A stretch of DNA of 16,625 nt from a virus. The stretch lies in UHGV virus genome UHGV-1607792; one strand, given 5' to 3'. This document shows, piece after piece, positions 388-16,625 of this stretch. A model generated the notes under the pieces. That model saw only the letters and a list, made by a program, of their open reading frames with translations. It had not been told where the DNA came from and did no database searches. The position numbers and the translations under genes are program-made. Numbering within the stretch: the stretch's first letter is position 1; each line of letters begins with the position of its first letter.

Positions 388-2316
388 TTATCGAACATGC
401 CAAAGAGTGTTCGACTTCACATTGACAGAGCTCTTAAAGTTATTATGACTGCACAACCAAACATGTGACTTATCAAGTTCTGCATAGGCATCTGACTTTA
501 AGAATGCTTCAGAAGATTTGCTTGTCTGTTGCTTTGTCATTGATGCATCACCTACAAGCATCGCAGTTGAGCCTTTGTACACTTGTTGTGCATCATCTGC
601 AATCAACGTAGCTTCAAATGGCTGTTGCTGCATAAGCAATGCAAGTGTAGACCGACATGAATCTTTGTCTACTCTTATATGTGTAATTTTGCCGGCAAAA
701 CCATACAGCTGAACAATGTCTGAGTCATTTGACCAGTCATGCAAAATTGATGTAGACTTAACAACTTCTGTCAAAATTTGCATGTCATTAACTACAGTAG
801 ATGTCGACAAACTCAGTACAAGTTCAACGTCACCATTGTCAAGATTGCGTAGTCTAATGACTACACCGTTCCAGCTCTTGCAAATCTTATCATCTACGCT
901 TGCTAAGCTTTCGCCAGTTTTGACATCAAGCACATGCAACAAGCCAGATGACACTACAAGCATCAATCTGCCAAGTCGCATCAGTTGCCATGATGCTGCT
1001 TGAGCTTTTGCGTTGTCTTCAAGCATAAACAAGCAACATGCAGACCAATCTGACACATCAAGCGATTTAACATACTCAACTGCGATGTTATTGCCAACTG
1101 CGTTCATGTCATAGAACGCAGCAGACACTGGCACATATTTGAACGACAGCGGTGATTCATTTACACTGACTGCTTTATGAATGAATCTGCGATTAGTCTC
1201 ATACATGCTCAAGTCGACATGCATGTCATTAACAAACATATTGAGAGCAATGTCTTCGACTTGTTCAGTTGCAACTTTGTCTGCATCAAAAGCATCGAAT
1301 GTTTGTGTGAGCTCGTCCAAATTAAGTATCTCTTTCACATCATCAGCAACTTGCATCTTAGACTCGTCACGATATTCAGGTCGATGCTCATATGACTTCA
1401 ATGTTAGCTCATAATATGGCGTTGATAACATAATGCCATCTGGATGCTGCACAGATGCGACTTCAAGCATTCGATTTGCTATTGGCACGTAGCAATAGTC
1501 AAATTGCTGCGGCTGCTTGCCAATGCCAAATACTCGTTCATATTCTGCTTTTGGCACATGAGCTGTTATGCCTTGTTCAAAATCAATGTCAAATGCGTCA
1601 TATGTGACTTTGTTCGTGCTAAATTCATTGTCAACGACCATCAACTTCAGCCACTTAACTGCGCCAGTATGAATCAAATCATATGCACGCAATGATGCAA
1701 CACGATGTTCATCTGACACTTCATGACTAAACCAGATAACAACATGACCAAGCTGACGATTCACAGCATTTACAATGTTGTCTTGCAATGCTATAGCATC
1801 TTGCATGTGCGTGTATGGATTGTACAGATGATTGTCTGATTCAATGACAATTGATGCTTGTTTTGCTGGTGCAAAAATCTCGTCAGCATATGTGACATTG
1901 TCAACAGACTCTTCATTGACTTTGATGTCTTCAAGCACATATGAGTCATGACGAACATTTGCTGCATCTGTCCATTGCTTGCGCCATGCAATATCAACAA
2001 TCATAATGAACTTGACATGCACTGGTTCGTCCGCAGTTGCATATGCAAGTACAAACTCATTCAAATGCGTTGCAGCATCATACACAGACCCAGGCTCAGA
2101 CCACGTCTTGCCTACATCTACAGACCATTTGAACTGCACATTGAGCATTGCATGACATTGCTCAGCATTGTCGACAAGCTCAATGTTATTCAACGAGCCT
2201 TTGATATCTGCAGCAAATTCAAGATACAGCGTAGAATCTTGTCTTACGATAATGCAATCGTTATCAGCCCTTTGTGACACTGACCGCTTTGTTGATTCGT
2301 TTGATGACTTTGCCAT
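388..2316 (-). CDS. hypothetical protein, 642 aa, acidic; no recognisable motif
   Basis: Long ORF with ATG start (2314-2316) and TAA stop (388-390); same strand and composition as neighbours. Its start overlaps the end of the upstream 516-aa gene by 53 nt in another frame. Confidence 0.8.
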   Translation of the reverse strand: MAKSSNESTKRSVSQRADNDCIIVRQDSTLYLEFAADIKGSLNNIELVDNAEQCHAMLNVQFKWSVDVGKTWSEPGSVYDAATHLNEFVLAYATADEPVHVKFIMIVDIAWRKQWTDAANVRHDSYVLEDIKVNEESVDNVTYADEIFAPAKQASIVIESDNHLYNPYTHMQDAIALQDNIVNAVNRQLGHVVIWFSHEVSDEHRVASLRAYDLIHTGAVKWLKLMVVDNEFSTNKVTYDAFDIDFEQGITAHVPKAEYERVFGIGKQPQQFDYCYVPIANRMLEVASVQHPDGIMLSTPYYELTLKSYEHRPEYRDESKMQVADDVKEILNLDELTQTFDAFDADKVATEQVEDIALNMFVNDMHVDLSMYETNRRFIHKAVSVNESPLSFKYVPVSAAFYDMNAVGNNIAVEYVKSLDVSDWSACCLFMLEDNAKAQAASWQLMRLGRLMLVVSSGLLHVLDVKTGESLASVDDKICKSWNGVVIRLRNLDNGDVELVLSLSTSTVVNDMQILTEVVKSTSILHDWSNDSDIVQLYGFAGKITHIRVDKDSCRSTLALLMQQQPFEATLIADDAQQVYKGSTAMLVGDASMTKQQTSKSSEAFLKSDAYAELDKSHVWLCSHNNFKSSVNVKSNTLWHVR

Positions 2317-3814
2317 TGCGAGGATTTATGATTGCAAGTTCAATATCATAGTCGCCGATATGACGAAAATGATGTCTAAAAAGATATTTGTCAGATGTAG
2401 CTTCAATGACTCCACCAGATATTGCATTGCGATATGTGCATGTCCATTTGATGTCATGTGGAGCATAAGCATATGACAGCTCATCTGGGAAGCAGCACAC
2501 TTGACTACCAACTGTCACAGTTGCGCCATTGTCAATCTTGCAAAACCTTGTATCATTTGGTCTACGTTGCACTGCATAGTGATGCTGACATTCAAACATG
2601 TCTGATTTGATTGACAGAGTTTGCCAAGGTGATTCAATTAGATATCGAGGCTTTTGAGACTCTTCACTTACAAGTTTACAATGCAACCCAAGATTTTCAA
2701 GCTCTTCAACAAGTTGAGTGTTTGCAATGTGTAGGGTGTAGTGTTTGTCATTTGTGTGTATTTCCACATCATGCTCAGTAACATCAACGACATCTGCAAT
2801 GATTGTCGCAGGCCAATTGCCAGTCAGCTCAAAGTCATCAAATGAGAAATGCAAATCTGTTTTGACATGCAATTGTGCTCTGCTCATAGGCTCTTTGCTG
2901 TACGCATACAATGCCCATTGCATTGAATTGTCAAGCATCTGAATTTCTTGCACAGACCATGTAAACTTCACAAATTGTGAATCTGCTTGCAATTCACAGT
3001 AGTCATTGATTTGTTTGAGCAAGTCTTTAACATCTGTGTATGCAATGTTGACTTCATCTGCGTCAACTTGAACGCCATCAACATCGACAAACTCAGACAT
3101 CGACATTGCAAATGTGCCAGCACCTTCAATATCAATTTGCATGTTCAGATATGTTGAGCCGTACTGCAACAATCGCATGCAATCAGAATCAATAAGTTTG
3201 ATGTCATTCAAATGGTCAAGCCATAGAACATTTGATTGCGCCTTGTCAAGATTGTAGAGCCATTTTATGATTGAGTCGTCTTTTTTGACATTTTCTGGGT
3301 CAAACACATTTGGGTCTGGGTAACTCATGAAATCTGGCACGCCCAATGCTTTTCGTGTGCTATAGTACAATGTAGCATTGTTCATGCCTGCAATATCAAT
3401 TGACTCATCAAGCTCTTGAAGCTTTGCAGCAATTTGAGACAATGAATTGCCAGCATATGACTGCTCAAGTGAATGTAGTTTGCAGTCTGCAATAGCAATG
3501 ACGAAGTTTGCTTGCAATTCTACGATGTTCAGTGTGCGTTTGAACACTTGCACTTGACCATAGCAATCTTTAATAGTCAACACAAGTTCATATGCACCTG
3601 CAGTTGTTATGCCAAGCTTAAGATGCTGTTGAACATCAAGATACGTTCTGTCAAACACAAGCTTGCCAGATTCATCATAGATTTCATATGTAGCTTCTCT
3701 ACAATTTTGTATGAGCGCAGATAAGTCTGTGTCTTTTGATGACCATGCTGCAATTGAAATGTCTATAATTGCTACATTGTCTCTATAAAAAAGCCCTATA
3801 GGTTGTGGATTCAT
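2264..3814 (-). CDS. hypothetical protein, 516 aa; possible beta-sandwich segments at both ends (weak)
   Basis: ATG at 3812-3814, TGA at 2264-2266; begins 11 nt after the stop of the 149-aa gene. Confidence 0.8.
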   Translation of the reverse strand: MNPQPIGLFYRDNVAIIDISIAAWSSKDTDLSALIQNCREATYEIYDESGKLVFDRTYLDVQQHLKLGITTAGAYELVLTIKDCYGQVQVFKRTLNIVELQANFVIAIADCKLHSLEQSYAGNSLSQIAAKLQELDESIDIAGMNNATLYYSTRKALGVPDFMSYPDPNVFDPENVKKDDSIIKWLYNLDKAQSNVLWLDHLNDIKLIDSDCMRLLQYGSTYLNMQIDIEGAGTFAMSMSEFVDVDGVQVDADEVNIAYTDVKDLLKQINDYCELQADSQFVKFTWSVQEIQMLDNSMQWALYAYSKEPMSRAQLHVKTDLHFSFDDFELTGNWPATIIADVVDVTEHDVEIHTNDKHYTLHIANTQLVEELENLGLHCKLVSEESQKPRYLIESPWQTLSIKSDMFECQHHYAVQRRPNDTRFCKIDNGATVTVGSQVCCFPDELSYAYAPHDIKWTCTYRNAISGGVIEATSDKYLFRHHFRHIGDYDIELAIINPRNGKVIKRINKAVSVTKG

Positions 3815-3825
3815 TGTATTGCAGT

Positions 3826-4275
3826 CTATTGATGATTGTTGTTATCACACCTATTGAGCAACTGGTCATAATACGTTTGCTCTGTCTTACGCTGCTGTTC
3901 TATCAAAATGATGATTTGTTCCATCTGAATTTCAAACGCGGCGTTTTTGCGAACAAGTGCCTTATGTTGCTCAGCAGTCAATGATGCGTCAAGAATGTCC
4001 AACATATCTGCATGATATGCAGCAATAATTTTGTTGTATTGCTGCATAGCAGTTTGCAAAGACTCAAATGATTGGTCAGATAATGTTGACAAAATCTGAA
4101 CATGCATTTTGTCTGTCAAGCCAATTTTTGCTTGCAGCAAATCACGTTCTGCTGAATGCTTTCTGTCAATGTTGATGATAAACATCATCAAAATCATCAA
4201 TACAAAAGCTATGACAGTCTTATAGTTCTTGTCATCAATGAATCGCAGCAAAAATATGTCTAAAAACTTTTCCAT
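3826..4275 (-). CDS. small membrane-anchored coiled-coil protein (N-terminal TM helix, then charged helical region), 149 aa
   Basis: ATG at 4273-4275, TAG at 3826-3828. Hydrophobic stretch TVIAFVLMILMMFIINI near the N-terminus, followed by a Q/E/K/L-rich heptad-like sequence. Architecture resembles type II membrane proteins such as i-spanins; function not established. Confidence 0.7.
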   Translation of the reverse strand: MEKFLDIFLLRFIDDKNYKTVIAFVLMILMMFIINIDRKHSAERDLLQAKIGLTDKMHVQILSTLSDQSFESLQTAMQQYNKIIAAYHADMLDILDASLTAEQHKALVRKNAAFEIQMEQIIILIEQQRKTEQTYYDQLLNRCDNNNHQ

Positions 4276-4292
4276 TGCTTATTCTGCATTGT

Positions 4293-5618
4293 TCATTCTG
4301 CGATTTCCCAGATTCGTGTTCGTTTGTTTGCTATGCTTCGTACTACCGCACTGTCACCTATGCGAACATCCCATGCTCGATTTGATGTCAATGTGATGTT
4401 CTTTGTACCACCAGGCTGTTCAAATGACAAGTTTGCTTTGTCAAGTTCAAGCAGTGGAGCCAAGTCCATGCTTTGGTCAATAAGCCAATCAAAGTACTCA
4501 GCGTCAATTTGTGTCGTGTCAATGTCTGCTTCAGTTACTACAAAAATGTCATTGAGTTTATTTGGTCTAACAGTGTCACCAATTGGCTCAAATGCAGTGC
4601 TTGACAGAAGCATTGTATGTGGACGAATGTAAATGATGTCTTCATCTACAAATGCATTCATATCTTTGACGACAATTTGTGCTGCAGGAGTGTATGGCTT
4701 TGACGTCACAATTTCTGCATTGTCTGAGCCATACAAATACCGAGCCATGTAGGATGCAAAAACATCAATGCTGACATCTGCAAAATGAATGTGCTCTGGC
4801 AAAAAGACATCTTCAAGAATCATGACAAGATACTGCAGCTTCAGCAACAAATCTTGATTGTCTGCCATGTTCTTGACAAATTCAGGCATGCCACAGTTCA
4901 GATATTTGCCAGATGCTTCATTGTATTCATAAGTCAGTTGCAGCAAATTTGTGCGCTTATACATGCCTGCGTATGGCGAAATGTCATCTTGCAATGGCAA
5001 CAATGTTCTGTTGTTGCCATCAAGTGATTTGAGCACTTCATAGATGCGAACAGCTTCACTGTAGCCAAGCCAGTCTAATGCAGCATGCAACCCATTGTAT
5101 GTACCAAGCTTGCTGTCAATGTCATCTCGTCGTATAAGCCACTCTCTTGCTTTGCTATTCTGCAATATGAAGTCAACGACATCTTGTCGAATGTCATTCA
5201 GCATCAATGCTTTGTTGTAGTACTCAAGATAGTCATGACCCATATTAGACATCATGACAAGCAAACGTTCATCCGCATCAACTACTGTAGCAGTCACATT
5301 GATATGCAATGCAATGCCATCAACGACAACTTCAATTGCACAAACGTTATTGCCAACATCGACAGCATTGAATATGATATTTGCAATCATATCATCGTTG
5401 ACAAGATGTCGAGTAGTCTTATCTACAAGCAGCAATTCATTATTATCGTCAACCGCAAAGAAACTCAATGCAGACGATAGCAATCTGACTGTGCATTCAA
5501 CATTGTCTGCAAACAATGATGCAATGTTGTATGTGCCCTTTGACACATTGCCAAGCTCTATGTTAGCGCCATCATAGATGCGCTTGCCGAATCTGTCAAA
5601 AATGTTTATTGCAGCCAT
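4293..5618 (-). CDS. hypothetical protein, 441 aa
   Basis: ORF track extends to 5642 from a TTG; the first ATG is 8 codons in (MAAINIFDRF...), giving end 5618. It sits 1 nt after the TAA of the upstream small ORF (TAA-C-ATG). TGA stop at 4293-4295. Confidence 0.8.
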   Translation of the reverse strand: MAAINIFDRFGKRIYDGANIELGNVSKGTYNIASLFADNVECTVRLLSSALSFFAVDDNNELLLVDKTTRHLVNDDMIANIIFNAVDVGNNVCAIEVVVDGIALHINVTATVVDADERLLVMMSNMGHDYLEYYNKALMLNDIRQDVVDFILQNSKAREWLIRRDDIDSKLGTYNGLHAALDWLGYSEAVRIYEVLKSLDGNNRTLLPLQDDISPYAGMYKRTNLLQLTYEYNEASGKYLNCGMPEFVKNMADNQDLLLKLQYLVMILEDVFLPEHIHFADVSIDVFASYMARYLYGSDNAEIVTSKPYTPAAQIVVKDMNAFVDEDIIYIRPHTMLLSSTAFEPIGDTVRPNKLNDIFVVTEADIDTTQIDAEYFDWLIDQSMDLAPLLELDKANLSFEQPGGTKNITLTSNRAWDVRIGDSAVVRSIANKRTRIWEIAE

Positions 5619-5619
5619 G

Positions 5620-5850
5620 TTACAGTTTCTTATCAATGTCAAAGTATGACGTAAAGCGATTCACAAATTCAACAAACAAAATCGACAATGCATCACACAT
5701 GCCAATGAGAGTTGACACGCCAAAATACGCTGCAACTCTTGTGCTCTTATTGAACACTACTCTACTATATACGCCACTCTGCCATGATGGCTTTGCAGTG
5801 ACAAGCATTGATTGCTTGATTTTGTCTCTTGTTGTGAAATTTGATTGCAT
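5620..5850 (-). CDS. small hydrophobic protein, 76 aa (one predicted TM-like segment, charged C-terminus)
   Basis: ATG at 5848-5850, 9 nt after a tandem TGA-TGA at the end of the 577-aa frame; its TAA stop lies 1 nt before the next ATG. Tight coupling on both sides supports it being real. Hydrophobic core VAAYFGVSTLIGMCDALSILFVEFV. Confidence 0.55.
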   Translation of the reverse strand: MQSNFTTRDKIKQSMLVTAKPSWQSGVYSRVVFNKSTRVAAYFGVSTLIGMCDALSILFVEFVNRFTSYFDIDKKL

Positions 5851-5862
5851 ATTTGTGAATCA

Positions 5863-7473
5863 TCAACATTCTACGTACGAGCCATCAGTGTTTTCAACAA
5901 GCACTTTGATGCTCAAGCCTACATCTGTGCCAGCTTGGCTTCTGATAAGTGGCACAATGTCTTTTGATTGTGGCGCAATGTTGCCCATATTATCAATGTG
6001 CTCGTCATTGCCAATGAACTGCACATCTACTGATTTGATGACATCAAGCTCTTCAAGTTTTGCGATTGCAGCAGAACGACTAACGAATGTCGATGCATTT
6101 GACCATGAGTCTTCTACAAATGCTTTTGCAGCATCAAGCAATTGCTGCTTGACGTCTTCTATGTTTTGCAGTACTGCAGTCTTTTTGACAAGAATGAGCA
6201 TTTGATAAAATTCAAGCTGCACAGTGTCAAATTGCACATCAGTTAGCAACACATAGTCACCAGTGTTTTCGATAGCATTGTTCAGATATTGTCTATCTGT
6301 AGAGTCGATAGTGAATTCTGCTATTGGCAATGACCAGTAGTCATACACTATTGAGCCTGCTTTGACATACTTGTCTGCAATGTTGGGCACCAACACGACA
6401 TGAATTGTTTGAGTCTCTGTATTTGACCAGACATCAAGTATCTTGTACTGACCAAAGCGTGACATGAATGCTCTGATTGAATCTGCTGAGTGCAACACAA
6501 GTGCCCTGTTAATTGAGCCTGCATGTGAACGTATAGATTCGATGTCTTCACCATTGTAACCACCTACAATGTCTGTCAACTGTTCAATGACTAATACACC
6601 CTTTGGACTTACTGCAGTAGTGTTTGCATCATACATGCCATTGACCCATTCAAATGTTGCATCATTGTCAATCAAAATGTTTCCTGCATAGCCCTCACAT
6701 GCAGTGTATTCTACATTGACGACTGCATTTTGTGCAGGAATTTGACCAGCAGTACCATTGCCAAACACAATCTGTAGTTTGCCATCATATGACCAGCGTT
6801 CAATGTACCCCTTGCTGTATCGGTCCATTTCATCAAACCCTGCATAGCGAGTCCACAGCTCATTGCCAACTGTGACAGTCAATGAATCTTCAGATACAAT
6901 CAAGTTGCGTTCTTCGATAGTGAATGTTGTCATTGACTCACCATCAGAAATATATTGCTGAGACTTGCGTTCACCTTGTCTAACTGCGAATTCATATCGT
7001 ACACCAGTCAACTCATTGTTGATGTTGAGTTGCGCAAAGTCTTGATGCATATCGATGTAGTACATCAGCGAGTTCTCTTTGCATTTAATTGCTGCGTATC
7101 GTTTAATGAACACAGTTGGACCAAGCTCTTTGACTGCGTCATATGAAAAACTCAATGCAATTTTGCCCGATGCTGCAATGCCACCAACACATTTGTAACA
7201 TGCAAGCTGTGCAAGTCCTCGTACAGATGCGGTCTGTTCTGCAGTAAGCAAGTTGTTTTCTTTTGTGCCTACTACAATTTGCGTAAAGATGAGTGACGCA
7301 AGTTCTCTGAAACTCTGAACAAGAATTCCAAAAATTGTGTACTTACCATATTGTTTCTTTGTAGAGTTCAGCAAATTCTGCAGCCAAGTATCTATAGACT
7401 GTGACACACCTGAATATGACATCTGCATTTTCTGCATCCATGTCATATTGTCACGAGTGTTATTTGTGCGCAT
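5863..7473 (-). CDS. hypothetical protein, 536 aa
   Basis: ORF track starts at a TTG (7596) and translates the tandem repeats and terminator palindrome; the first ATG is 41 codons in (MRTNNTRDNMTWMQ...), at 7471-7473. A-rich leader without SD. Stop TGA at 5863-5865. Confidence 0.8.
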   Translation of the reverse strand: MRTNNTRDNMTWMQKMQMSYSGVSQSIDTWLQNLLNSTKKQYGKYTIFGILVQSFRELASLIFTQIVVGTKENNLLTAEQTASVRGLAQLACYKCVGGIAASGKIALSFSYDAVKELGPTVFIKRYAAIKCKENSLMYYIDMHQDFAQLNINNELTGVRYEFAVRQGERKSQQYISDGESMTTFTIEERNLIVSEDSLTVTVGNELWTRYAGFDEMDRYSKGYIERWSYDGKLQIVFGNGTAGQIPAQNAVVNVEYTACEGYAGNILIDNDATFEWVNGMYDANTTAVSPKGVLVIEQLTDIVGGYNGEDIESIRSHAGSINRALVLHSADSIRAFMSRFGQYKILDVWSNTETQTIHVVLVPNIADKYVKAGSIVYDYWSLPIAEFTIDSTDRQYLNNAIENTGDYVLLTDVQFDTVQLEFYQMLILVKKTAVLQNIEDVKQQLLDAAKAFVEDSWSNASTFVSRSAAIAKLEELDVIKSVDVQFIGNDEHIDNMGNIAPQSKDIVPLIRSQAGTDVGLSIKVLVENTDGSYVEC

Positions 7474-7498
7474 ATCAGTTAATTTGTTTGTATATGTA

Positions 7499-7572
7499 TT
7501 CGAATGTGCACACATGAGAATAGGTCTCTTCGAATGTGCACATATGAGAATAGTCTCTTCGAATATGCGCAC
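7499..7572. repeat. 2.5 tandem copies of a 30-bp direct repeat; each unit stacks three palindromic cores (TTCGAA, TGTGCACA, CATATG)
   Basis: Unit 1 at 7499-7528: ttcgaatgtgcacacatgagaataggtctc. Unit 2 at 7529-7557: ttcgaatgtgcacatatgagaatagtctc. Partial unit at 7558-7572: ttcgaatatgcgcac. Lies between a terminator and the ATG of the 536-aa gene. Confidence 0.8.
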
Positions 7573-7603
7573 AAAAAGAAGAGCTTGCATATGCAAGCTC
7601 TTC
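7573..7603 (-). terminator. intrinsic (Rho-independent) terminator candidate
   Basis: Perfect 26-bp palindrome gaagagcttgcat|atgcaagctcttc (7578-7603), giving an 11-bp stem and ATAT loop, followed on the minus-strand transcript by UUUUUGUG. About 43 nt downstream of the 127-aa gene stop. Confidence 0.7.
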
Positions 7604-7645
7604 CATCGCCAAAACCTATCTAATTATGGAAACACCTCTGAAAGG

Positions 7646-8029
7646 TCAAATTATGAATCGTTTTGTGATTGGCCTGAAGTCTTCTGGCAAATCATAACGT
7701 TTTGTGATTGTTACATCGCAAACAAGCAAATCGTTCATTTGTGTAGCAGATTTTGTAATGAAACAGTTGACAGACCATTCAAACAAATGCTGCGTAACGC
7801 TATAGTTTTTGAGTGCTGTAATGATATGTGATTGAATTGTTGCTGTCGAAATGCTTCTGTGATAAAGCGCAGCATCAATCTTCTCGACATCAAACATAAT
7901 GTCAATTTCATTCAAAAAGACGCGCAATGAATCAGTTGTTTGCAATTCATCATCTTCTTGAGTTTCTACAAAGTCAATGCCTTGCAGCTCTTGTGACATT
8001 TGTGATGTATCGAAACGATTATCTGACAT
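7646..8029 (-). CDS. hypothetical protein, 127 aa
   Basis: ATG at 8027-8029, 6 nt after the TAG of the 436-aa gene; TGA at 7646-7648; followed on the minus strand by a hairpin plus U-tract terminator. Confidence 0.7.
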   Translation of the reverse strand: MSDNRFDTSQMSQELQGIDFVETQEDDELQTTDSLRVFLNEIDIMFDVEKIDAALYHRSISTATIQSHIITALKNYSVTQHLFEWSVNCFITKSATQMNDLLVCDVTITKRYDLPEDFRPITKRFII

Positions 8030-8035
8030 GATATG

Positions 8036-9346
8036 CTATGCTGTTTGTTGAACATTGACAGTCACAAGCACCTGTTTACCAGGCTCCTGCGATTTCATTT
8101 GACGTGACACTTCAATGAATGCATCAAGCAATTGCGCAGGTGAAACAGTCATGCCTTGCTCCATAAGCTGCTTACGCAATGCTGCGATTTGCTGACTTGC
8201 ATTTTGGTCATTGCCAATTGACAACATTAGTGAATCAAGTCGACGTCCAAGTTCTGCAACTTTAAGTTGAATTGACTGCAATTGTGATGCTGAATCTGCA
8301 AGTTGACTGATAGCTTGCATGTACAAATCAAGCGACACGCCATCAATATTCGATACTTCAATGGGCGCAAGTCCAACATTGCATGAGCTTACTCTAGTGC
8401 AAATGCGAAATGCGATTGCATTTGCAGAGCCATCATCAGACACTGCTTTCTTAACAAAGCGTTGCATGCTGTAACCTCTGCCACCCGATTCTTCATATCG
8501 ATTGACAAAGAACAATGAATGCAAGCATCGTGTTTTGACAGTTGGATTTGACTGCAGCCAAACATCACAATACAATGCAATGCAATTGAATTCAATGTCT
8601 TCATTGAATGCTTCATAATCTGAGAACTGTAGCTTCAATCTATCAACTGCACGGCTCAAACTGTATCGACTTGCAGGTTCTACAACATCTGCATTGTCAT
8701 AGATAGCTTTTGTGAATGTTGTGTCGCCATCTTCAAGACCCTGAGCGTTTTCTTGGAATGTTTCTGGCACATAGCCAACTTCAATGCCTGGATATGTTGC
8801 AGCAGACCATTTTGCATTGCATCGCTTCGCGTTTGCAGGTATGTACAAATACTGCTCAGTGTATGGCATACCATTAAGCTCAACTACGCCAAAATCAATT
8901 GCATTGCCAATATATGTGACAAGTGGTTGCCAATCTGAACGTTGTACAAATGCTGCACCATCTGCAGTAGACTCAAGTTCAAGAGCAGAAGCCTTTTGAA
9001 ACATCTTCCACAACGCAGATTCTGTGAATGTTTCATTGGCAGACTCCAGCAATGACGTTGCAAGCAATGAGCAGTTGTCGAGGTAGTTTTGACACAATGC
9101 TGGCACAAGAGCGTTGGCGTCTTCAACCATCGTAGTGTCATTGAACTCTGATGGATGCACAAAGAACTTTTGCCCATTGTGCTCAGCGTCATTGTACCAA
9201 TCTGGAATGTTCAAACAAGCAAACACAGATGGTGACACGACAATGTCGTGATTTAATGTCGCATTTGTCAGTAGCGTATTTGTGTCAGTGAACACAAGTA
9301 CAGTGCCTTGTGTTAACTTTAACGGGTCGAAAACGGAAACTCTCAT
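8036..9346 (-). CDS. hypothetical protein, 436 aa, C-terminal coiled-coil-like region
   Basis: ATG at 9344-9346, 2 nt after the TAA of the 144-aa gene; TAG at 8036-8038. Confidence 0.8.
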   Translation of the reverse strand: MRVSVFDPLKLTQGTVLVFTDTNTLLTNATLNHDIVVSPSVFACLNIPDWYNDAEHNGQKFFVHPSEFNDTTMVEDANALVPALCQNYLDNCSLLATSLLESANETFTESALWKMFQKASALELESTADGAAFVQRSDWQPLVTYIGNAIDFGVVELNGMPYTEQYLYIPANAKRCNAKWSAATYPGIEVGYVPETFQENAQGLEDGDTTFTKAIYDNADVVEPASRYSLSRAVDRLKLQFSDYEAFNEDIEFNCIALYCDVWLQSNPTVKTRCLHSLFFVNRYEESGGRGYSMQRFVKKAVSDDGSANAIAFRICTRVSSCNVGLAPIEVSNIDGVSLDLYMQAISQLADSASQLQSIQLKVAELGRRLDSLMLSIGNDQNASQQIAALRKQLMEQGMTVSPAQLLDAFIEVSRQMKSQEPGKQVLVTVNVQQTA

Positions 9347-10402: not shown

Positions 10403-11299
10403 CTACAGTGTTCCGCAAAGTAATTCACGTAAATCCATGCCAGCTTGTGTGCTGTATTGAGCAATCATGTTGCGTTCAGCTTCAGACATGCTCCAATAGA
10501 TTTTGTGAAAACTGCGTTTGATAATTGTATGAATGCCAGATGTGCTACAGTTGAGCTTCTTTGCAAGTTCTGCATGAGTTAGCAAATCAGCATCGCCAAG
10601 GCCATATACATGCGTAAGTACGAGCTTTTCATTTTGTGTGAGCTGTTCAAATGCTCTTTGCAGAATCTTTGTGTTGCGTTTGTGAGCATCCTCGATTTCA
10701 AGAACTTCTTGACCTGTTTTGAAGTCTGACCTCAAATCATTCTGAACTGGCGACCATGTATCGCCATCTTTGTCAAGTGTAGTGTCATCTTTGCTGGTGA
10801 ATTGTTTGACTTCAAGAACTCTTTCATATGCTCCACGAATACCAGTAGATAATTGTTGACTTGTCAGATTGAGTTCGTCAAGCACATATTTCTTAATCCA
10901 AGGATATGCATATGTGCTAAACTTTGCTTCACGAACTCCTGCAGGCAATACGCCTTCTACGTAATTCTTGGCTGCTATTGACAATCCAAGATTGCCTGCT
11001 TGAATGACATCATCCAATGGAACCGAGCGTTTGCCAGATGCGAACCATAAGCTTCGTGCAACTGATATGACCAATCTTAAACAAGATTTGATAAGAGCTT
11101 CACGATTTTCTTGAGTCTTCTTGAATCGAGTAACATCACAATATCGCTTTGCAGTAGCCAGCGATTTGACTTCTTCAGGAGTAAGCTCATTCTCCATCCT
11201 CATTTGCTTGAGCTCTTCCTTTGTGTATAGACGTTCTCTTGTGATTCTACCTACGTCCTTTACGTAGCCTTGATTGATTTGTGAATTTGAACCTGCCAT
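10403..11299 (-). CDS. sigma-70 family RNA polymerase sigma factor, 298 aa
   Basis: Region 2 signature: LRLVISVARSL...LDDVIQAGNLGLSIAAKNY...KFSTYAYPWIKKYVLDEL, compared from memory with the E. coli RpoD segments LRLVISIAKKY / LIQEGNIGLMKAV / KFSTYATWWIRQAI. Region 4 helix-turn-helix: LTHAELAKKLNCSTSGIHTIIKRSFHKI. ATG at 11297-11299, TAG at 10403-10405. Flanked upstream by a 133-bp AT-rich gap and downstream by a GC-rich hairpin terminator. Confidence 0.85.
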   Translation of the reverse strand: MAGSNSQINQGYVKDVGRITRERLYTKEELKQMRMENELTPEEVKSLATAKRYCDVTRFKKTQENREALIKSCLRLVISVARSLWFASGKRSVPLDDVIQAGNLGLSIAAKNYVEGVLPAGVREAKFSTYAYPWIKKYVLDELNLTSQQLSTGIRGAYERVLEVKQFTSKDDTTLDKDGDTWSPVQNDLRSDFKTGQEVLEIEDAHKRNTKILQRAFEQLTQNEKLVLTHVYGLGDADLLTHAELAKKLNCSTSGIHTIIKRSFHKIYWSMSEAERNMIAQYSTQAGMDLRELLCGTL

Positions 11300-14310: not shown

Positions 14311-16625
14311 TTATCGTATGATGAATGGTTTGTTGGTATCTTCAATAATCATTGAGCCGATGCCATGTAACTCTTGAGTAACCTCGACAGATACGTCTTG
14401 TGCAGTGTTGTACGAGCACTTGAATGCTGCAACTCGACTAAATGCGTCAATGTCTGAGTAACTGAGTTCATCGACTTGCATTGAGATTTCACCAATTGCT
14501 GGCGTAGTCTTTGATGGTGTCATTGTGATGTCATGCAGCCAGCCCGGATTGCCAACTATGACTGCTGTCAATGATTCGCCATCAATTGGGTTGATGATTT
14601 CATAGTTGAAGCTTAAAGTCTTTGCAGTATCATCAGTTGTTGCCGATGCAGGTGTAATGTTGATTGTTGTTACGCCCTTAGCAGCTTGAACAACTTGTGC
14701 TGTGACATCTTGAGCATTGATGTGAGAGAACTTAACTGAACAACTGCGTTGTTCTGTCGTCAAGTTGCGGTCACATTCAATAGTCAAGTAGCCCCTGCCA
14801 GTATTATCGTCATATTCGAAGTTTGTATCGGTAAATGTGCCATCATTGTCAAGCACTGCATATGACAACTGCTGGCCTGCAATTGGGTTGCCAACAGTAA
14901 TTTCGAACTGTACTTGAGTATCTGTCGACTTCAATTGAGCATTCATTGGTTCGACAGTTATCGTTGACATGCCTTGAGCTGCTTGTGTGATGCTGACCGT
15001 TACATTGTCAGCAGTCATGTATGACAGTCTCAAGTATAAGTTACGAGTAGCTGTTGCAGTGTTGATGTCAAGCGCAAATTGTATTGTGCCGGCTGACATA
15101 TTAACTACAGGTTCGCCAACAAAGCCAGAGCCCTCTGTCGTAACTGTCAGTGTTTCACCTTCAATAGGGTTGATGATGCTAAAGTTAACTGTGAACGAAC
15201 CGCCATTAGCTGCTGCGTTGATTGTCAATGGTTCGGCATTGATGACTGTAGCTTCTTTAGCAGCTTGAGTAAGCAAGACTGCTACATTGTCAGCAGTTGG
15301 ATATTGCAGTACAATATTTGCTGTACGAGCAGTTGTTTGCAATGTCTTGTCATAATCAAATGTAATCTTGTCATCAGCAACTTGAACGTTGTGAATCCAG
15401 CTTTCTGTTGCATATGCAGTGACTGCTGCACCAGCAAAGCCATTACGAATTTGATATGCAATTTCAGCTGAACCACCTGCTGCATTGAGTGACATAGAGC
15501 TTGTAACAATGATTTCTGGCCTTGTTGAAACACCTGTACTGTATTGAACTACAGATGCAATTACACGAGGCTCAAATATGACAGCATTTGCAGAGCCGCC
15601 AAATGTAGGTGTTGCAATCACATAGATTGGCCAAACTCCACTTGATGCGACATTACGTAAGATTGCTTGATAATGCAGTTCATTGCATGCATCTTGCAAT
15701 TCACTCCACGTTTTTGTAGTGTCAATTGATGTCAAGCATGCTGGCAATACTGCGCATGTTGATGGCTTATCCGCATCAATGGGCATTGCATTGCCACCTG
15801 CTATTGGCTTGTAGCTCAAGTCAACTTTGACTGATGCATAGCCATTGCCATACACAATGAATGGTATAGTGATATCGAACAAAATATCGACTGTTGCAGG
15901 CATGTTCAGATATGCAGGCAGCGGTATGAGTGTTTGCATTGCTGTCGTGCCTGGTACGTGGTCATCGAATGATTCAACATACACAGGTGGTGTCAAGTCA
16001 TCTTTATGCGCATATTCTGCGTGAGTGTGGTCTGAATGCGACACTGTGCTTGCATAACCAGAACCACCAAAGTTCTTATTAAATGCAGAGCCCTTTGCTT
16101 CTTCAGTTAATCTGCCAGAGCCATCATATGACAATACTGTATTTGATGCACCGACACCTGCTGCAAGATGATTTGAGCCATCAATGAAGACATGTTTGTA
16201 TTGACGTTCAAACAAATGAGCATCAAAATTGTCAAATATCGAATTGAACAACTTTTTGACTGCAGATGCTGTAGGCAGATGTTTGTTTGCATTTGCGCCA
16301 TCGATAATGATGCTTGACCAATTGTCTGAGCTCTTGAAGATGCTAAGAAGCATATCAACAACTTTGCCAGTAGCATCTGTGCCAAGAACACTTGCACCAG
16401 GCAATTTCATCAATTGTAAGTCGACTGTTGCAGCAAGTTTAAGCAGCTGTTTTGTCAATGTCAGAATGTCTGTGACAGCACCAGCATCTGACAATGCAGC
16501 AATGCGATATGACTGATTGATGAGTTGCGCAAACTTATACGCACGAATGAATGACTCTCGCTTTGCTTCTGCATCCAAGCCTTTTGCCAAGAACAACTCA
16601 TCATATTTCAGATTTGCATATGACA
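14311..16625 (-). CDS. large repeat protein with four tandem BACON-like/Ig-like domains at the C-terminus; 5' end lies beyond window end
   Basis: The frame is open to the last base of the window; the track's start at 16596 is a TTG and upstream codons continue in frame. TAA at 14311-14313. Four homologous 50-100 aa repeats, each ending (T/N)A(D/Q)(D/N)V(T/S/A)V.(V/I/L)TQ(A/E)(A/L).G, with internal NPI(E/A/D)G and R-T/S-A motifs. Confidence 0.8.
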   Translation of the reverse strand, partial: SYANLKYDELFLAKGLDAEAKRESFIRAYKFAQLINQSYRIAALSDAGAVTDILTLTKQLLKLAATVDLQLMKLPGASVLGTDATGKVVDMLLSIFKSSDNWSSIIIDGANANKHLPTASAVKKLFNSIFDNFDAHLFERQYKHVFIDGSNHLAAGVGASNTVLSYDGSGRLTEEAKGSAFNKNFGGSGYASTVSHSDHTHAEYAHKDDLTPPVYVESFDDHVPGTTAMQTLIPLPAYLNMPATVDILFDITIPFIVYGNGYASVKVDLSYKPIAGGNAMPIDADKPSTCAVLPACLTSIDTTKTWSELQDACNELHYQAILRNVASSGVWPIYVIATPTFGGSANAVIFEPRVIASVVQYSTGVSTRPEIIVTSSMSLNAAGGSAEIAYQIRNGFAGAAVTAYATESWIHNVQVADDKITFDYDKTLQTTARTANIVLQYPTADNVAVLLTQAAKEATVINAEPLTINAAANGGSFTVNFSIINPIEGETLTVTTEGSGFVGEPVVNMSAGTIQFALDINTATATRNLYLRLSYMTADNVTVSITQAAQGMSTITVEPMNAQLKSTDTQVQFEITVGNPIAGQQLSYAVLDNDGTFTDTNFEYDDNTGRGYLTIECDRNLTTEQRSCSVKFSHINAQDVTAQVVQAAKGVTTINITPASATTDDTAKTLSFNYEIINPIDGESLTAVIVGNPGWLHDITMTPSKTTPAIGEISMQVDELSYSDIDAFSRVAAFKCSYNTAQDVSVEVTQELHGIGSMIIEDTNKPFIIR
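14362..15405 (-). repeat. tandem array of four protein-level repeats (BACON-like beta-sandwich modules) inside the 761-aa CDS
   Basis: Approximate residues 398-745 of the track protein. Repeat ends: ...NVAVLLTQAAKE / ...NVTVSITQAAQG / ...DVTAQVVQAAKG / ...DVSVEVTQELHG. Repeat starts: ATVINAEP / MSTITVEP / VTTINITP. Diverged at nucleotide level. Confidence 0.6.

Follow-up and report, generated by a model that had tools for sequence, protein, structure and literature searches.

In contractile tails, two gp6-like subunits and one gp7-like subunit form the helical core bundle and the trifurcation unit of the baseplate wedge, and the wedge modules described so include gp25–gp6–gp7–gp53 in T4, W–J–I in P2 and gp21–gp22–gp23 in Pam3 (PMC9942802). 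Here we analyse a module of this kind in a 16,625-nt stretch of DNA (the window) from the virus genome UHGV-1607792, and two small genes embedded in it, whose products p76 and p149 are, like p441, p516, p642 and p127 below, named by their length in amino acids (aa). The region is a baseplate-wedge operon of an uncultured large myovirus, a distant relative of the jumbo phages PAU, PTm1, pT24 and MA9V; near-identical contigs are ~175 kb. Both p76 (5620–5850) and p149 (3826–4275) are encoded on the minus strand and flank p441 (4293–5618), with the coordinates and lengths given by a first-pass annotation, which had tentatively read the two as a holin and an i-spanin. Our best guess, held with low-to-moderate confidence, is that p76 and p149 are conserved accessory genes of the baseplate operon and not a holin/spanin pair.

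The locus resembles the described wedge modules in that a gp6-like gene is preceded by a small gene in the gp25 position and followed by a large protein in the slot usually taken by the gp7-like protein, all of them co-transcribed. It differs in two respects: the gp6-like gene and the large gene are separated by an additional gene of 76 aa, and the large gene itself is in two pieces, with a membrane-type gene of 149 aa between them. Among cultured phages, homologous gp6-like, large and p642- or p436-like proteins, in similar order, are encoded by PAU (gp16–gp21), PTm1 (ORF172–177), pT24 (241–246) and MA9V-1/-2 (029–033). The order in these relatives is a gp25-position gene, the gp6-like gene, at least one open reading frame (ORF) of 52–110 aa and one gene of 903–1013 aa, the large gene of pT24 lying upstream; in MA9V, the p642 homologue comes next after the large gene. 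All four also carry a 63–83-aa ORF, annotated as hypothetical, directly after the wedge gene. Unlike the window, they have an unsplit 903–1013-aa gene, no p149 homologue was found in them, and their small post-wedge proteins are too little hydrophobic to span a membrane and only marginally similar to p76.

The gp6-like wedge gene, p76, p441, p149, p516 and p642 form one operon behind a single terminator/repeat boundary. An intrinsic-terminator-like hairpin with a 12-bp stem and a T run (7577–7604, minus strand) follows the 127-aa gene; read from 7604 to 7577 it closes the upstream unit and is the 5′ boundary of the wedge operon. It is the sole minus-strand terminator-like site in 2000–8200, and a relative has a comparable hairpin at this intergenic position (L008, 6070–6115). 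Between the hairpin and the wedge gene stand three direct repeats of ~29 nt (7494–7570, minus strand) with the core GTGCACATTCGAAGAGAC, which gives 3 matches against 0.04 expected; the repeats may be a candidate phage late promoter or regulatory region of the operon. Downstream, the gaps between genes are 12 nt (wedge–p76), 1 nt (p76–p441), 17 nt (p441–p149) and 11 nt (p149–p516), and intergenic spacing is similarly tight in the relatives. With a single boundary terminator and such short gaps, the p76 and p149 genes are therefore co-transcribed with the baseplate genes. Base composition is uniform over the genes of the operon.

The gp6-like baseplate wedge gene itself (5863–7473, minus strand) encodes 536 aa from ATG 7473 (MRTNNTRD...). 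Its product matched PHROG 219, ‘baseplate wedge subunit’ (E = 2.7e-22), and, by blastp, MA9V_030, PAU gp17, pT24_243 and PTm1 ORF173 (E = about 1e-52 to 2e-31). The 577-aa ORF listed for this gene (5863–7596) is over-long, having a TTG start within the terminator/repeat region and running through the hairpin; we place the start at ATG 7473 because the alignment with the relatives puts it there. A combined alignment of gp6-like proteins was too diverse to find loci, and two sub-alignments were used instead.

Profile alignments show p441 and p516 to be, at the level of sequence, the N- and C-terminal halves of one large protein of the relatives. The p441 gene (4293–5618, minus strand) encodes 441 aa from ATG 5618, or 449 aa from an upstream TTG, and p516 (2264–3814, minus strand) corresponds to the C-terminal half. 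p441 matched PHROG 28177 (function unknown, profile length 1016; E = 9e-24), and its tblastn matches fell only in the jumbo phages MA9V-1/-2 (Chryseobacterium), PTm1, PTm5 and pT24 (Tenacibaculum) and PAU (Sphingomonas), along with two uncultured huge phages. With the large protein of pT24, MA9V, PAU and PTm1, p441 aligned by hhalign at positions 86–337 (E = 4e-20, probability 99.3) and p516 at positions 410–886 (E = 1.7e-12), and blastp matched p516 to residues 466–901 of pT24_246 (E = 7e-6). The lengths tally, 441 + 516 aa against 903–1013 aa for the single gene. The large gene, undivided in the cultured relatives, is therefore represented here by two genes, and the p149 gene sits exactly between them; all six lineages of the window's clade have the large gene split and a 149-aa-type gene inserted.

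The first-pass annotation had pointed to p441 as a protein in which structure prediction might reveal a peptidoglycan hydrolase fold. No hydrolase emerged: an AlphaFold2 model from a 7-sequence alignment (pLDDT 47) was confident only for residues 1–113, a beta-sandwich whose Foldseek matches in the PDB were generic PapD, Ig and MG sandwiches, and p441 is instead half of a baseplate-module protein. A PDB sequence search with the p441 profile was empty, and those with the p516, gp6-like and p642 profiles gave nothing significant. Searches of Pfam and the PDB linked none of p441, p516 and p76 by sequence or fold to gp7, gpI, TssG or gp53, the fold comparison for p441 covering residues 1–113. The most conserved block of p441 lies deeper in the protein, at RRDDIDSKLGTY.GL..ALDWLGY and FLPEHIHF.

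The gene for p149 (3826–4275, minus strand; 149 aa), between p441 and p516, occupies the fission point, and its family, of 137–163 aa, occurs only in the split-gene clade. A p149-type ORF of 137–161 aa lies directly downstream of p441 in all five other contig types (L008/L009, L010, L011/L012, L033 and L034), whose p441 homologues are 36–61% identical to that of the window. p76 homologues are likewise fixed in place, standing directly upstream of the p441 homologue wherever the contig reaches (five other lineages). Because homologues hold the same positions in diverged lineages, p149 and p76 are real genes and not chance ORFs. In a collection of 5.8 billion proteins, the p149 family comprised 47 clusters at 90% identity, of 93–173 aa, unnamed and without Pfam domains, and a HMMER profile run against 1.84 billion representatives (50% identity) recovered only this narrow family, with 7 members. 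No match to p149 was found by tblastn against 50,697 phage records at E <= 10, or by hmmsearch of its hidden Markov model (HMM) against six-frame ORFs of the cultured relatives. One candidate origin of p149, a middle stretch of the unsplit protein that has since diverged, was rejected, as the hhalign comparison gave E = 0.55 and the two halves already cover the full length.

Conservation within p149 is concentrated at its N terminus. Identity to the relatives is 26–48% overall, 42–60% over the first 40 residues and 18–43% over the rest, where it is 18–26% in four relatives and 43% in the closest. The conserved N-terminal 39 residues (4159–4275, minus strand) comprise an amphipathic helix (residues 2–12), the sequence FIDD, a hydrophobic helix and the motif INxDRK, with I7, L9, F12, I13, D14, D15, I34, D37 and K39 invariant. 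The hydrophobic helix, residues 20–36 (TVIAFVLMILMMFIINI; 4168–4218, minus strand), is a predicted transmembrane (TM) helix flanked by KNYK and DRK, with a KD19 value of 2.22, a crude Hessa-scale sum of −3.0 and an Eisenberg mean hydrophobicity <H> of 0.80. Among the 15 window proteins it is the only segment with a negative crude insertion-energy sum. In the relatives, the corresponding segment (for example, PIMSLLILIAVTYAINV) has the same character at a lower hydrophobicity (+0.7 to +2.9, <H> ~0.67). From these sequence features, p149 is very probably a membrane-anchored helical protein.

AlphaFold2 (21 sequences) predicted p149 to be all-helical, with helices at residues 2–12, 18–95 and 101–148, at low confidence (pLDDT 57). 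A heptad test against shuffled sequences was significant in the window copy only (z = 3.2) and negative in eight relatives, the hydrophobic periodicity being mostly 3.6–3.7. Thus, of the TM anchor and coiled coil that the first-pass annotation had assigned to p149, the TM-grade helix and the long helices that follow it hold, whereas a canonical coiled coil is doubtful, its signal being weak and confined to the window copy. Foldseek against BFVD gave no match to p149 below E = 0.1, and a PDB sequence search returned only coiled-coil noise (langerin neck, Rpt4).

The p76 gene (5620–5850, minus strand) starts 12 nt past the wedge stop and stops 1 nt before the p441 ATG. Its product belongs to a family of 72–76 aa and is 39–71% identical to its counterparts in five other lineages, which is at least the conservation of its structural neighbours. 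Neither Pfam, PHROGs nor the phage genomes gave a match to p76, the last including tblastn against the 50,697 records at E <= 10. The single hydrophobic segment first reported for it is present, at residues 43–63 (FGVSTLIGMCDALSILFVEFV; 5662–5724, minus strand; family motif CDA[LM]SILF), but is only borderline as a TM helix. It contains an invariant Asp53, to which the window copy adds Glu61 and many members a Glu six residues upstream of the Asp. The window copy has a KD19 value of 1.85, a crude sum of +3.25, <H> of 0.65 and a hydrophobic moment muH of 0.11, and the family ranges over 1.66–1.95 for KD19 and 0.60–0.65 for <H>, with a low moment. Crude hydropathy sums of this kind are unable to exclude a TM helix (a lambda S sequence scored +4.2), and we did not use them as a refutation. 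The charged C terminus once attributed to p76 did not survive the family comparison, in which the tail varies in net charge from −2 to +3 and has a YFD[LI] motif as its conserved feature; it is the N-terminal 40 residues that are basic (+3 to +6).

Outside the window's clade, an ORF of 63–90 aa follows the gp6-like gene in PAU (gp18), pT24 (241), PTm1 (ORF174) and MA9V (031/085), and also in five further IMG/VR contigs. In pT24 (L006, 6644–13425), where the large gene precedes the wedge gene, a 64-aa ORF still follows the latter; the small ORF is therefore tied to the gp6-like gene and not to the large gene. By hhalign, the PAU-type small proteins are homologous to the IMG/VR-type ones (E = 9e-6), and the C-terminal helices of both, charged and amphipathic (<H> 0.31–0.44), are clearly not membrane-spanning. 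Alignment of the p76 family with them by hhalign was collinear over 48–60 columns, almost the whole protein, with P = 0.016–0.044, and hmmsearch of the p76 HMM against the six-frame ORFs of the cultured relatives gave no match. By this comparison, homology of p76 to the PAU gp18-type small proteins is likely but unproven; if it is real, the p76 family is therefore not a membrane-protein family.

These observations allow us to propose, as a plausible reading that falls somewhat short of probable, that p76 is a wedge-associated subunit or cofactor and p149 a late membrane-anchored helper of the split baseplate protein. In this proposal, p76 would be a small soluble subunit or assembly cofactor of the wedge, its CDA[LM]SILF helix buried against the gp6-like protein, p441 or both; it might sit in or beside the helical core bundle, and that it joins or caps the bundle is speculation. 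p149 would be a single-pass inner-membrane protein whose functional core is the N-terminal 39 residues, a cytoplasmic amphipathic helix followed by the TM helix. Acting late in infection, it could help or tether both halves of the split protein from its anchor in the membrane, with the fast-evolving two-helix domain as a spacer or envelope-facing part. Co-inheritance is consistent with such a role, as the six lineages with a short p441 all carry a p149 homologue directly downstream. Membrane-anchored assembly factors had been named at the outset as an alternative to lysis proteins, and the operon context does fit them better than it fits lysis; at least one of the two proteins appears to be membrane-anchored, although the membrane nature of p76 is borderline.

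Several points weigh against this proposal. That p76 and p149 contact baseplate proteins is something we infer only, and the co-occurrence of p149 with the gene fission, which may go back to one historical event, proves no functional link. A purely cytoplasmic assembly role leaves unexplained why p149 has kept an extracytoplasmic domain of 110 residues. For p76, the homology to PAU gp18-type proteins is only suggestive, the HMM-to-sequence search having found nothing, and the helix, in the members of its own clade, plots in the ‘transmembrane’ corner of an Eisenberg diagram. An enzymatic domain could lie in p441 beyond residue 113, where the model is poor (pLDDT 47). Furthermore, lysis is a frequent function of small late membrane proteins in Gram-negative phages, and a holin gene may stand alone among structural genes, as T4 t and T7 17.5 do.

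The strongest rival is that both are lysis proteins, p149 being a T4 T-like holin or antiholin or an Rz-like i-spanin and p76 a small holin or antiholin, expressed late; taken as a whole we consider it unlikely. T4 T is a class III holin whose gene lies next to gene 38, the gene for T7 gp17.5 lies next to gene 17, and holins are diverse. Like T4 T and T7 gp17.5, p76 and p149 are products of small late genes with one hydrophobic helix, set in a tail-gene block far from any endolysin, and p149 could share the N-in, one-TM, C-out topology of T. The late-operon location fits, as do a conserved TM helix and N terminus in p149, which would suit holins as proteins whose membrane part does the work, and the high mean hydrophobicity and low moment of the p76 helix. 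However, neither protein resembles Phage_holin_T or another holin family, the C-terminal domain of p149 consists of two helices, unlike the globular domain of T, and the p76 tail is not conserved as basic, while p149 ends in a helical domain of 110 residues.

The i-spanin version draws on the size of p149, its N-terminal TM-grade helix and its two long helices with a short break at residues 96–100, a layout reminiscent of Rz-type i-spanins. Unlike them, p149 has a conserved segment of 19 residues before the TM helix and no conserved heptad pattern. Its anchor is conserved and its distal end, where i-spanins meet the o-spanin, is the least conserved part, the reverse of the pattern expected of an i-spanin. 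Nor was a partner found: no lipoprotein-type N terminus (lipobox) occurs in ORFs of at least 25 aa on either strand of the 16.6-kb window, and none overlaps 3700–4400 in any minus-strand frame, so that no o-spanin gene embedded in, overlapping or adjacent to p149 is available and p149 would be an i-spanin without its obligatory partner gene.

Searches for lysis genes pointed the same way. Pfam and PHROGs scans of the 15 window proteins found no muralytic, holin or spanin domain, in agreement with the first-pass annotation, which had seen no endolysin motif in any neighbour, and the p76 and p149 family alignments gave nothing consistent against the same libraries, only weak matches to coiled regions. 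No endolysin is thus linked to p76 or p149 in the window, and the part of p441 that could be modelled is a beta-sandwich. The small proteins that take the place of p76 in the relatives are not membrane proteins, and both genes hold their place in the baseplate operon in lineages as divergent as 36% identity. With no o-spanin ORF, no family match, no basic tail on p76 and an anchor rather than a helical domain conserved in p149, the pairing of holin and i-spanin is not supported. A role in lysis, unlikely as it is, would fall mainly to p149.

A reference lysis cassette from MA9V-1 was tried and proved unhelpful. The endolysin of MA9V-1 is given as ‘lysozyme RrrD’ (PMC10537231). The annotated protein is 822 aa long (L035, 19284–21752) and is not an obvious endolysin; this length would suit a virion-associated protein with a lysozyme domain better than a soluble endolysin.

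A different version of the tether, which we regard as quite unlikely, is that p149 is an anchor that arose with the fission of the large protein and, by way of its conserved cytoplasmic helix and its TM helix, ties the two halves to the host inner membrane and with them wedge assembly or the finished baseplate; a baseplate operon would then include a gene for a dedicated membrane tether. Almost as likely as this version is that p149 represents a new family of single-pass holins or lysis timers in these uncultured large phages. Improbable, too, is a role of p149 in envelope-directed superinfection exclusion or receptor masking, through an inner-membrane anchor and a fast-evolving periplasmic helical domain. 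The rapid evolution of the C-terminal domain beside a conserved anchor would suit it, as would neighbours that include peripheral baseplate proteins and BACON/Ig-like repeat proteins; T5 llp and the cor genes, which adjoin receptor-binding genes, offer an analogy. However, the p149 gene has neither a promoter-sized intergenic region nor a terminator of its own, and this implies late expression with the structural genes; the exclusion genes known from lytic phages are early. p149 had no family match in the libraries searched, PADLOC not being among them, and exclusion leaves p76 unexplained.

There is similarly little to recommend p149 as a virion component, that is, a helical baseplate protein whose buried helix inserts into the host membrane like those of ejection or pilot proteins. 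Its place in a structural operon and its all-helical architecture agree with this, and its BFVD Foldseek matches include several ‘internal virion proteins’, all at E > 0.1 and only a hint. Against it, no fold or sequence match was significant, the presence of p149 in particles is supposition and its hydrophobic segment exceeds the hydrophobicity usual in soluble assembly intermediates.

In T4-like phages, topoisomerase genes 39 and 60 are split by the insertion of mobA, and p149 is likewise an ORF that separates the halves of a gene found whole in relatives. Its position exactly at the junction, with no counterpart in the unsplit gene, would fit a selfish or neutral insertion with no baseplate role, but we think this very unlikely, given that p149, unlike mobA, has no endonuclease motif, other mobility domain or family match and looks like a membrane protein, that its composition is not foreign and that it is kept in every lineage of a clade diverged to 36% identity. 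This retention, with the strongly conserved N terminus, indicates selection on the protein itself. A recent foreign insert was unsupported as well, the base composition being unremarkable.

For annotation, the value of placing p76 and p149 is that two ORFan families, both new to Pfam and PHROGs, are kept from ‘holin’ and ‘spanin’ labels given on architecture alone, and that p76, p149, p441 and p516 are assigned to a wedge operon shared with the little-studied PAU, PTm1, pT24 and MA9V jumbo phages. A baseplate protein of ~950 aa that has been split, with a membrane-type gene at the junction, is also a clean natural experiment. Should p149 act together with the two halves, tail morphogenesis would here involve an unusual membrane-anchored factor; should it be a lysis protein, it would offer a first way into the lysis of a phage group with no known holin or spanin. 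Either outcome would be of specialist interest and not field-changing.

All substantial ORFs of the window are on the minus strand. In the order of transcription, the 15 window proteins measure 761, 211, 163, 537, 298, 176, 144, 436, 127, 577, 76, 441, 149, 516 and 642 aa, the 577-aa entry being the gp6-like wedge gene with a true length of 536 aa and the 441 aa being counted from ATG 5618. Scans for tRNA genes and Rfam families found none in the window, and the DNA of 3000–7600 had no match among the 50,697 phage records. Upstream of the wedge gene, p127 (7646–8029, minus strand) is the small gene in the position of the gp25-like wedge protein; its position matches that of PTm1 ORF172, pT24_244, PAU gp16 and MA9V_029, with a weak blastp hit (E = 0.037) as the sole sequence signal. 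The 436-aa protein before it (8036–9346) has clear homologues in PAU gp14 (E = 5e-44), pT24 (245) and PTm1 (ORF171), whose genes lie immediately before the gp25-position gene or two genes ahead of it, and is a conserved tail/baseplate protein.

At the other end, p642 (388–2316, minus strand) is the last operon gene within the window and a homologue of MA9V-1_033 (blastp E = 3e-19), whose MA9V-2 counterpart (MA9V-2_087) is annotated ‘neck protein’; it also has weak matches to PHROG 679 and Pfam T4_neck-protein. Read from its first ATG, p642 overlaps the end of p516 by 53 nt (2264–2316), and the overlap is 1 nt in two relatives (L010 and L011). In a 98%-identical IMG/VR contig, the 10 kb past p642 encode a 1442-aa protein of Ig/BACON-like repeats along with further apparent structural proteins; no endolysin was evident among these ORFs, which were read, with no family-library scan. 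The 1442-aa protein, with its many Ig/BACON-like repeats, lies past the low end of the window (L014, 11985–16313), and also beyond that end (L014, 16385–17657) are two proteins of ~200 aa that share the N-terminal motif MAKP.W...G.GN. A weak BACON-type domain was found in the 761-aa protein within the window (14311–16596). Such BACON/Ig-like proteins hint that the host belongs to the Bacteroidota and that functions in decoration or adhesion are encoded here. Finally, a sigma-70-like factor of 298 aa with regions 2 and 4 (10403–11299, minus strand; PHROG 351, E = 5e-25) has its gene amid the structural block, and the gene keeps the same place in a relative (L008, 2210–3103).

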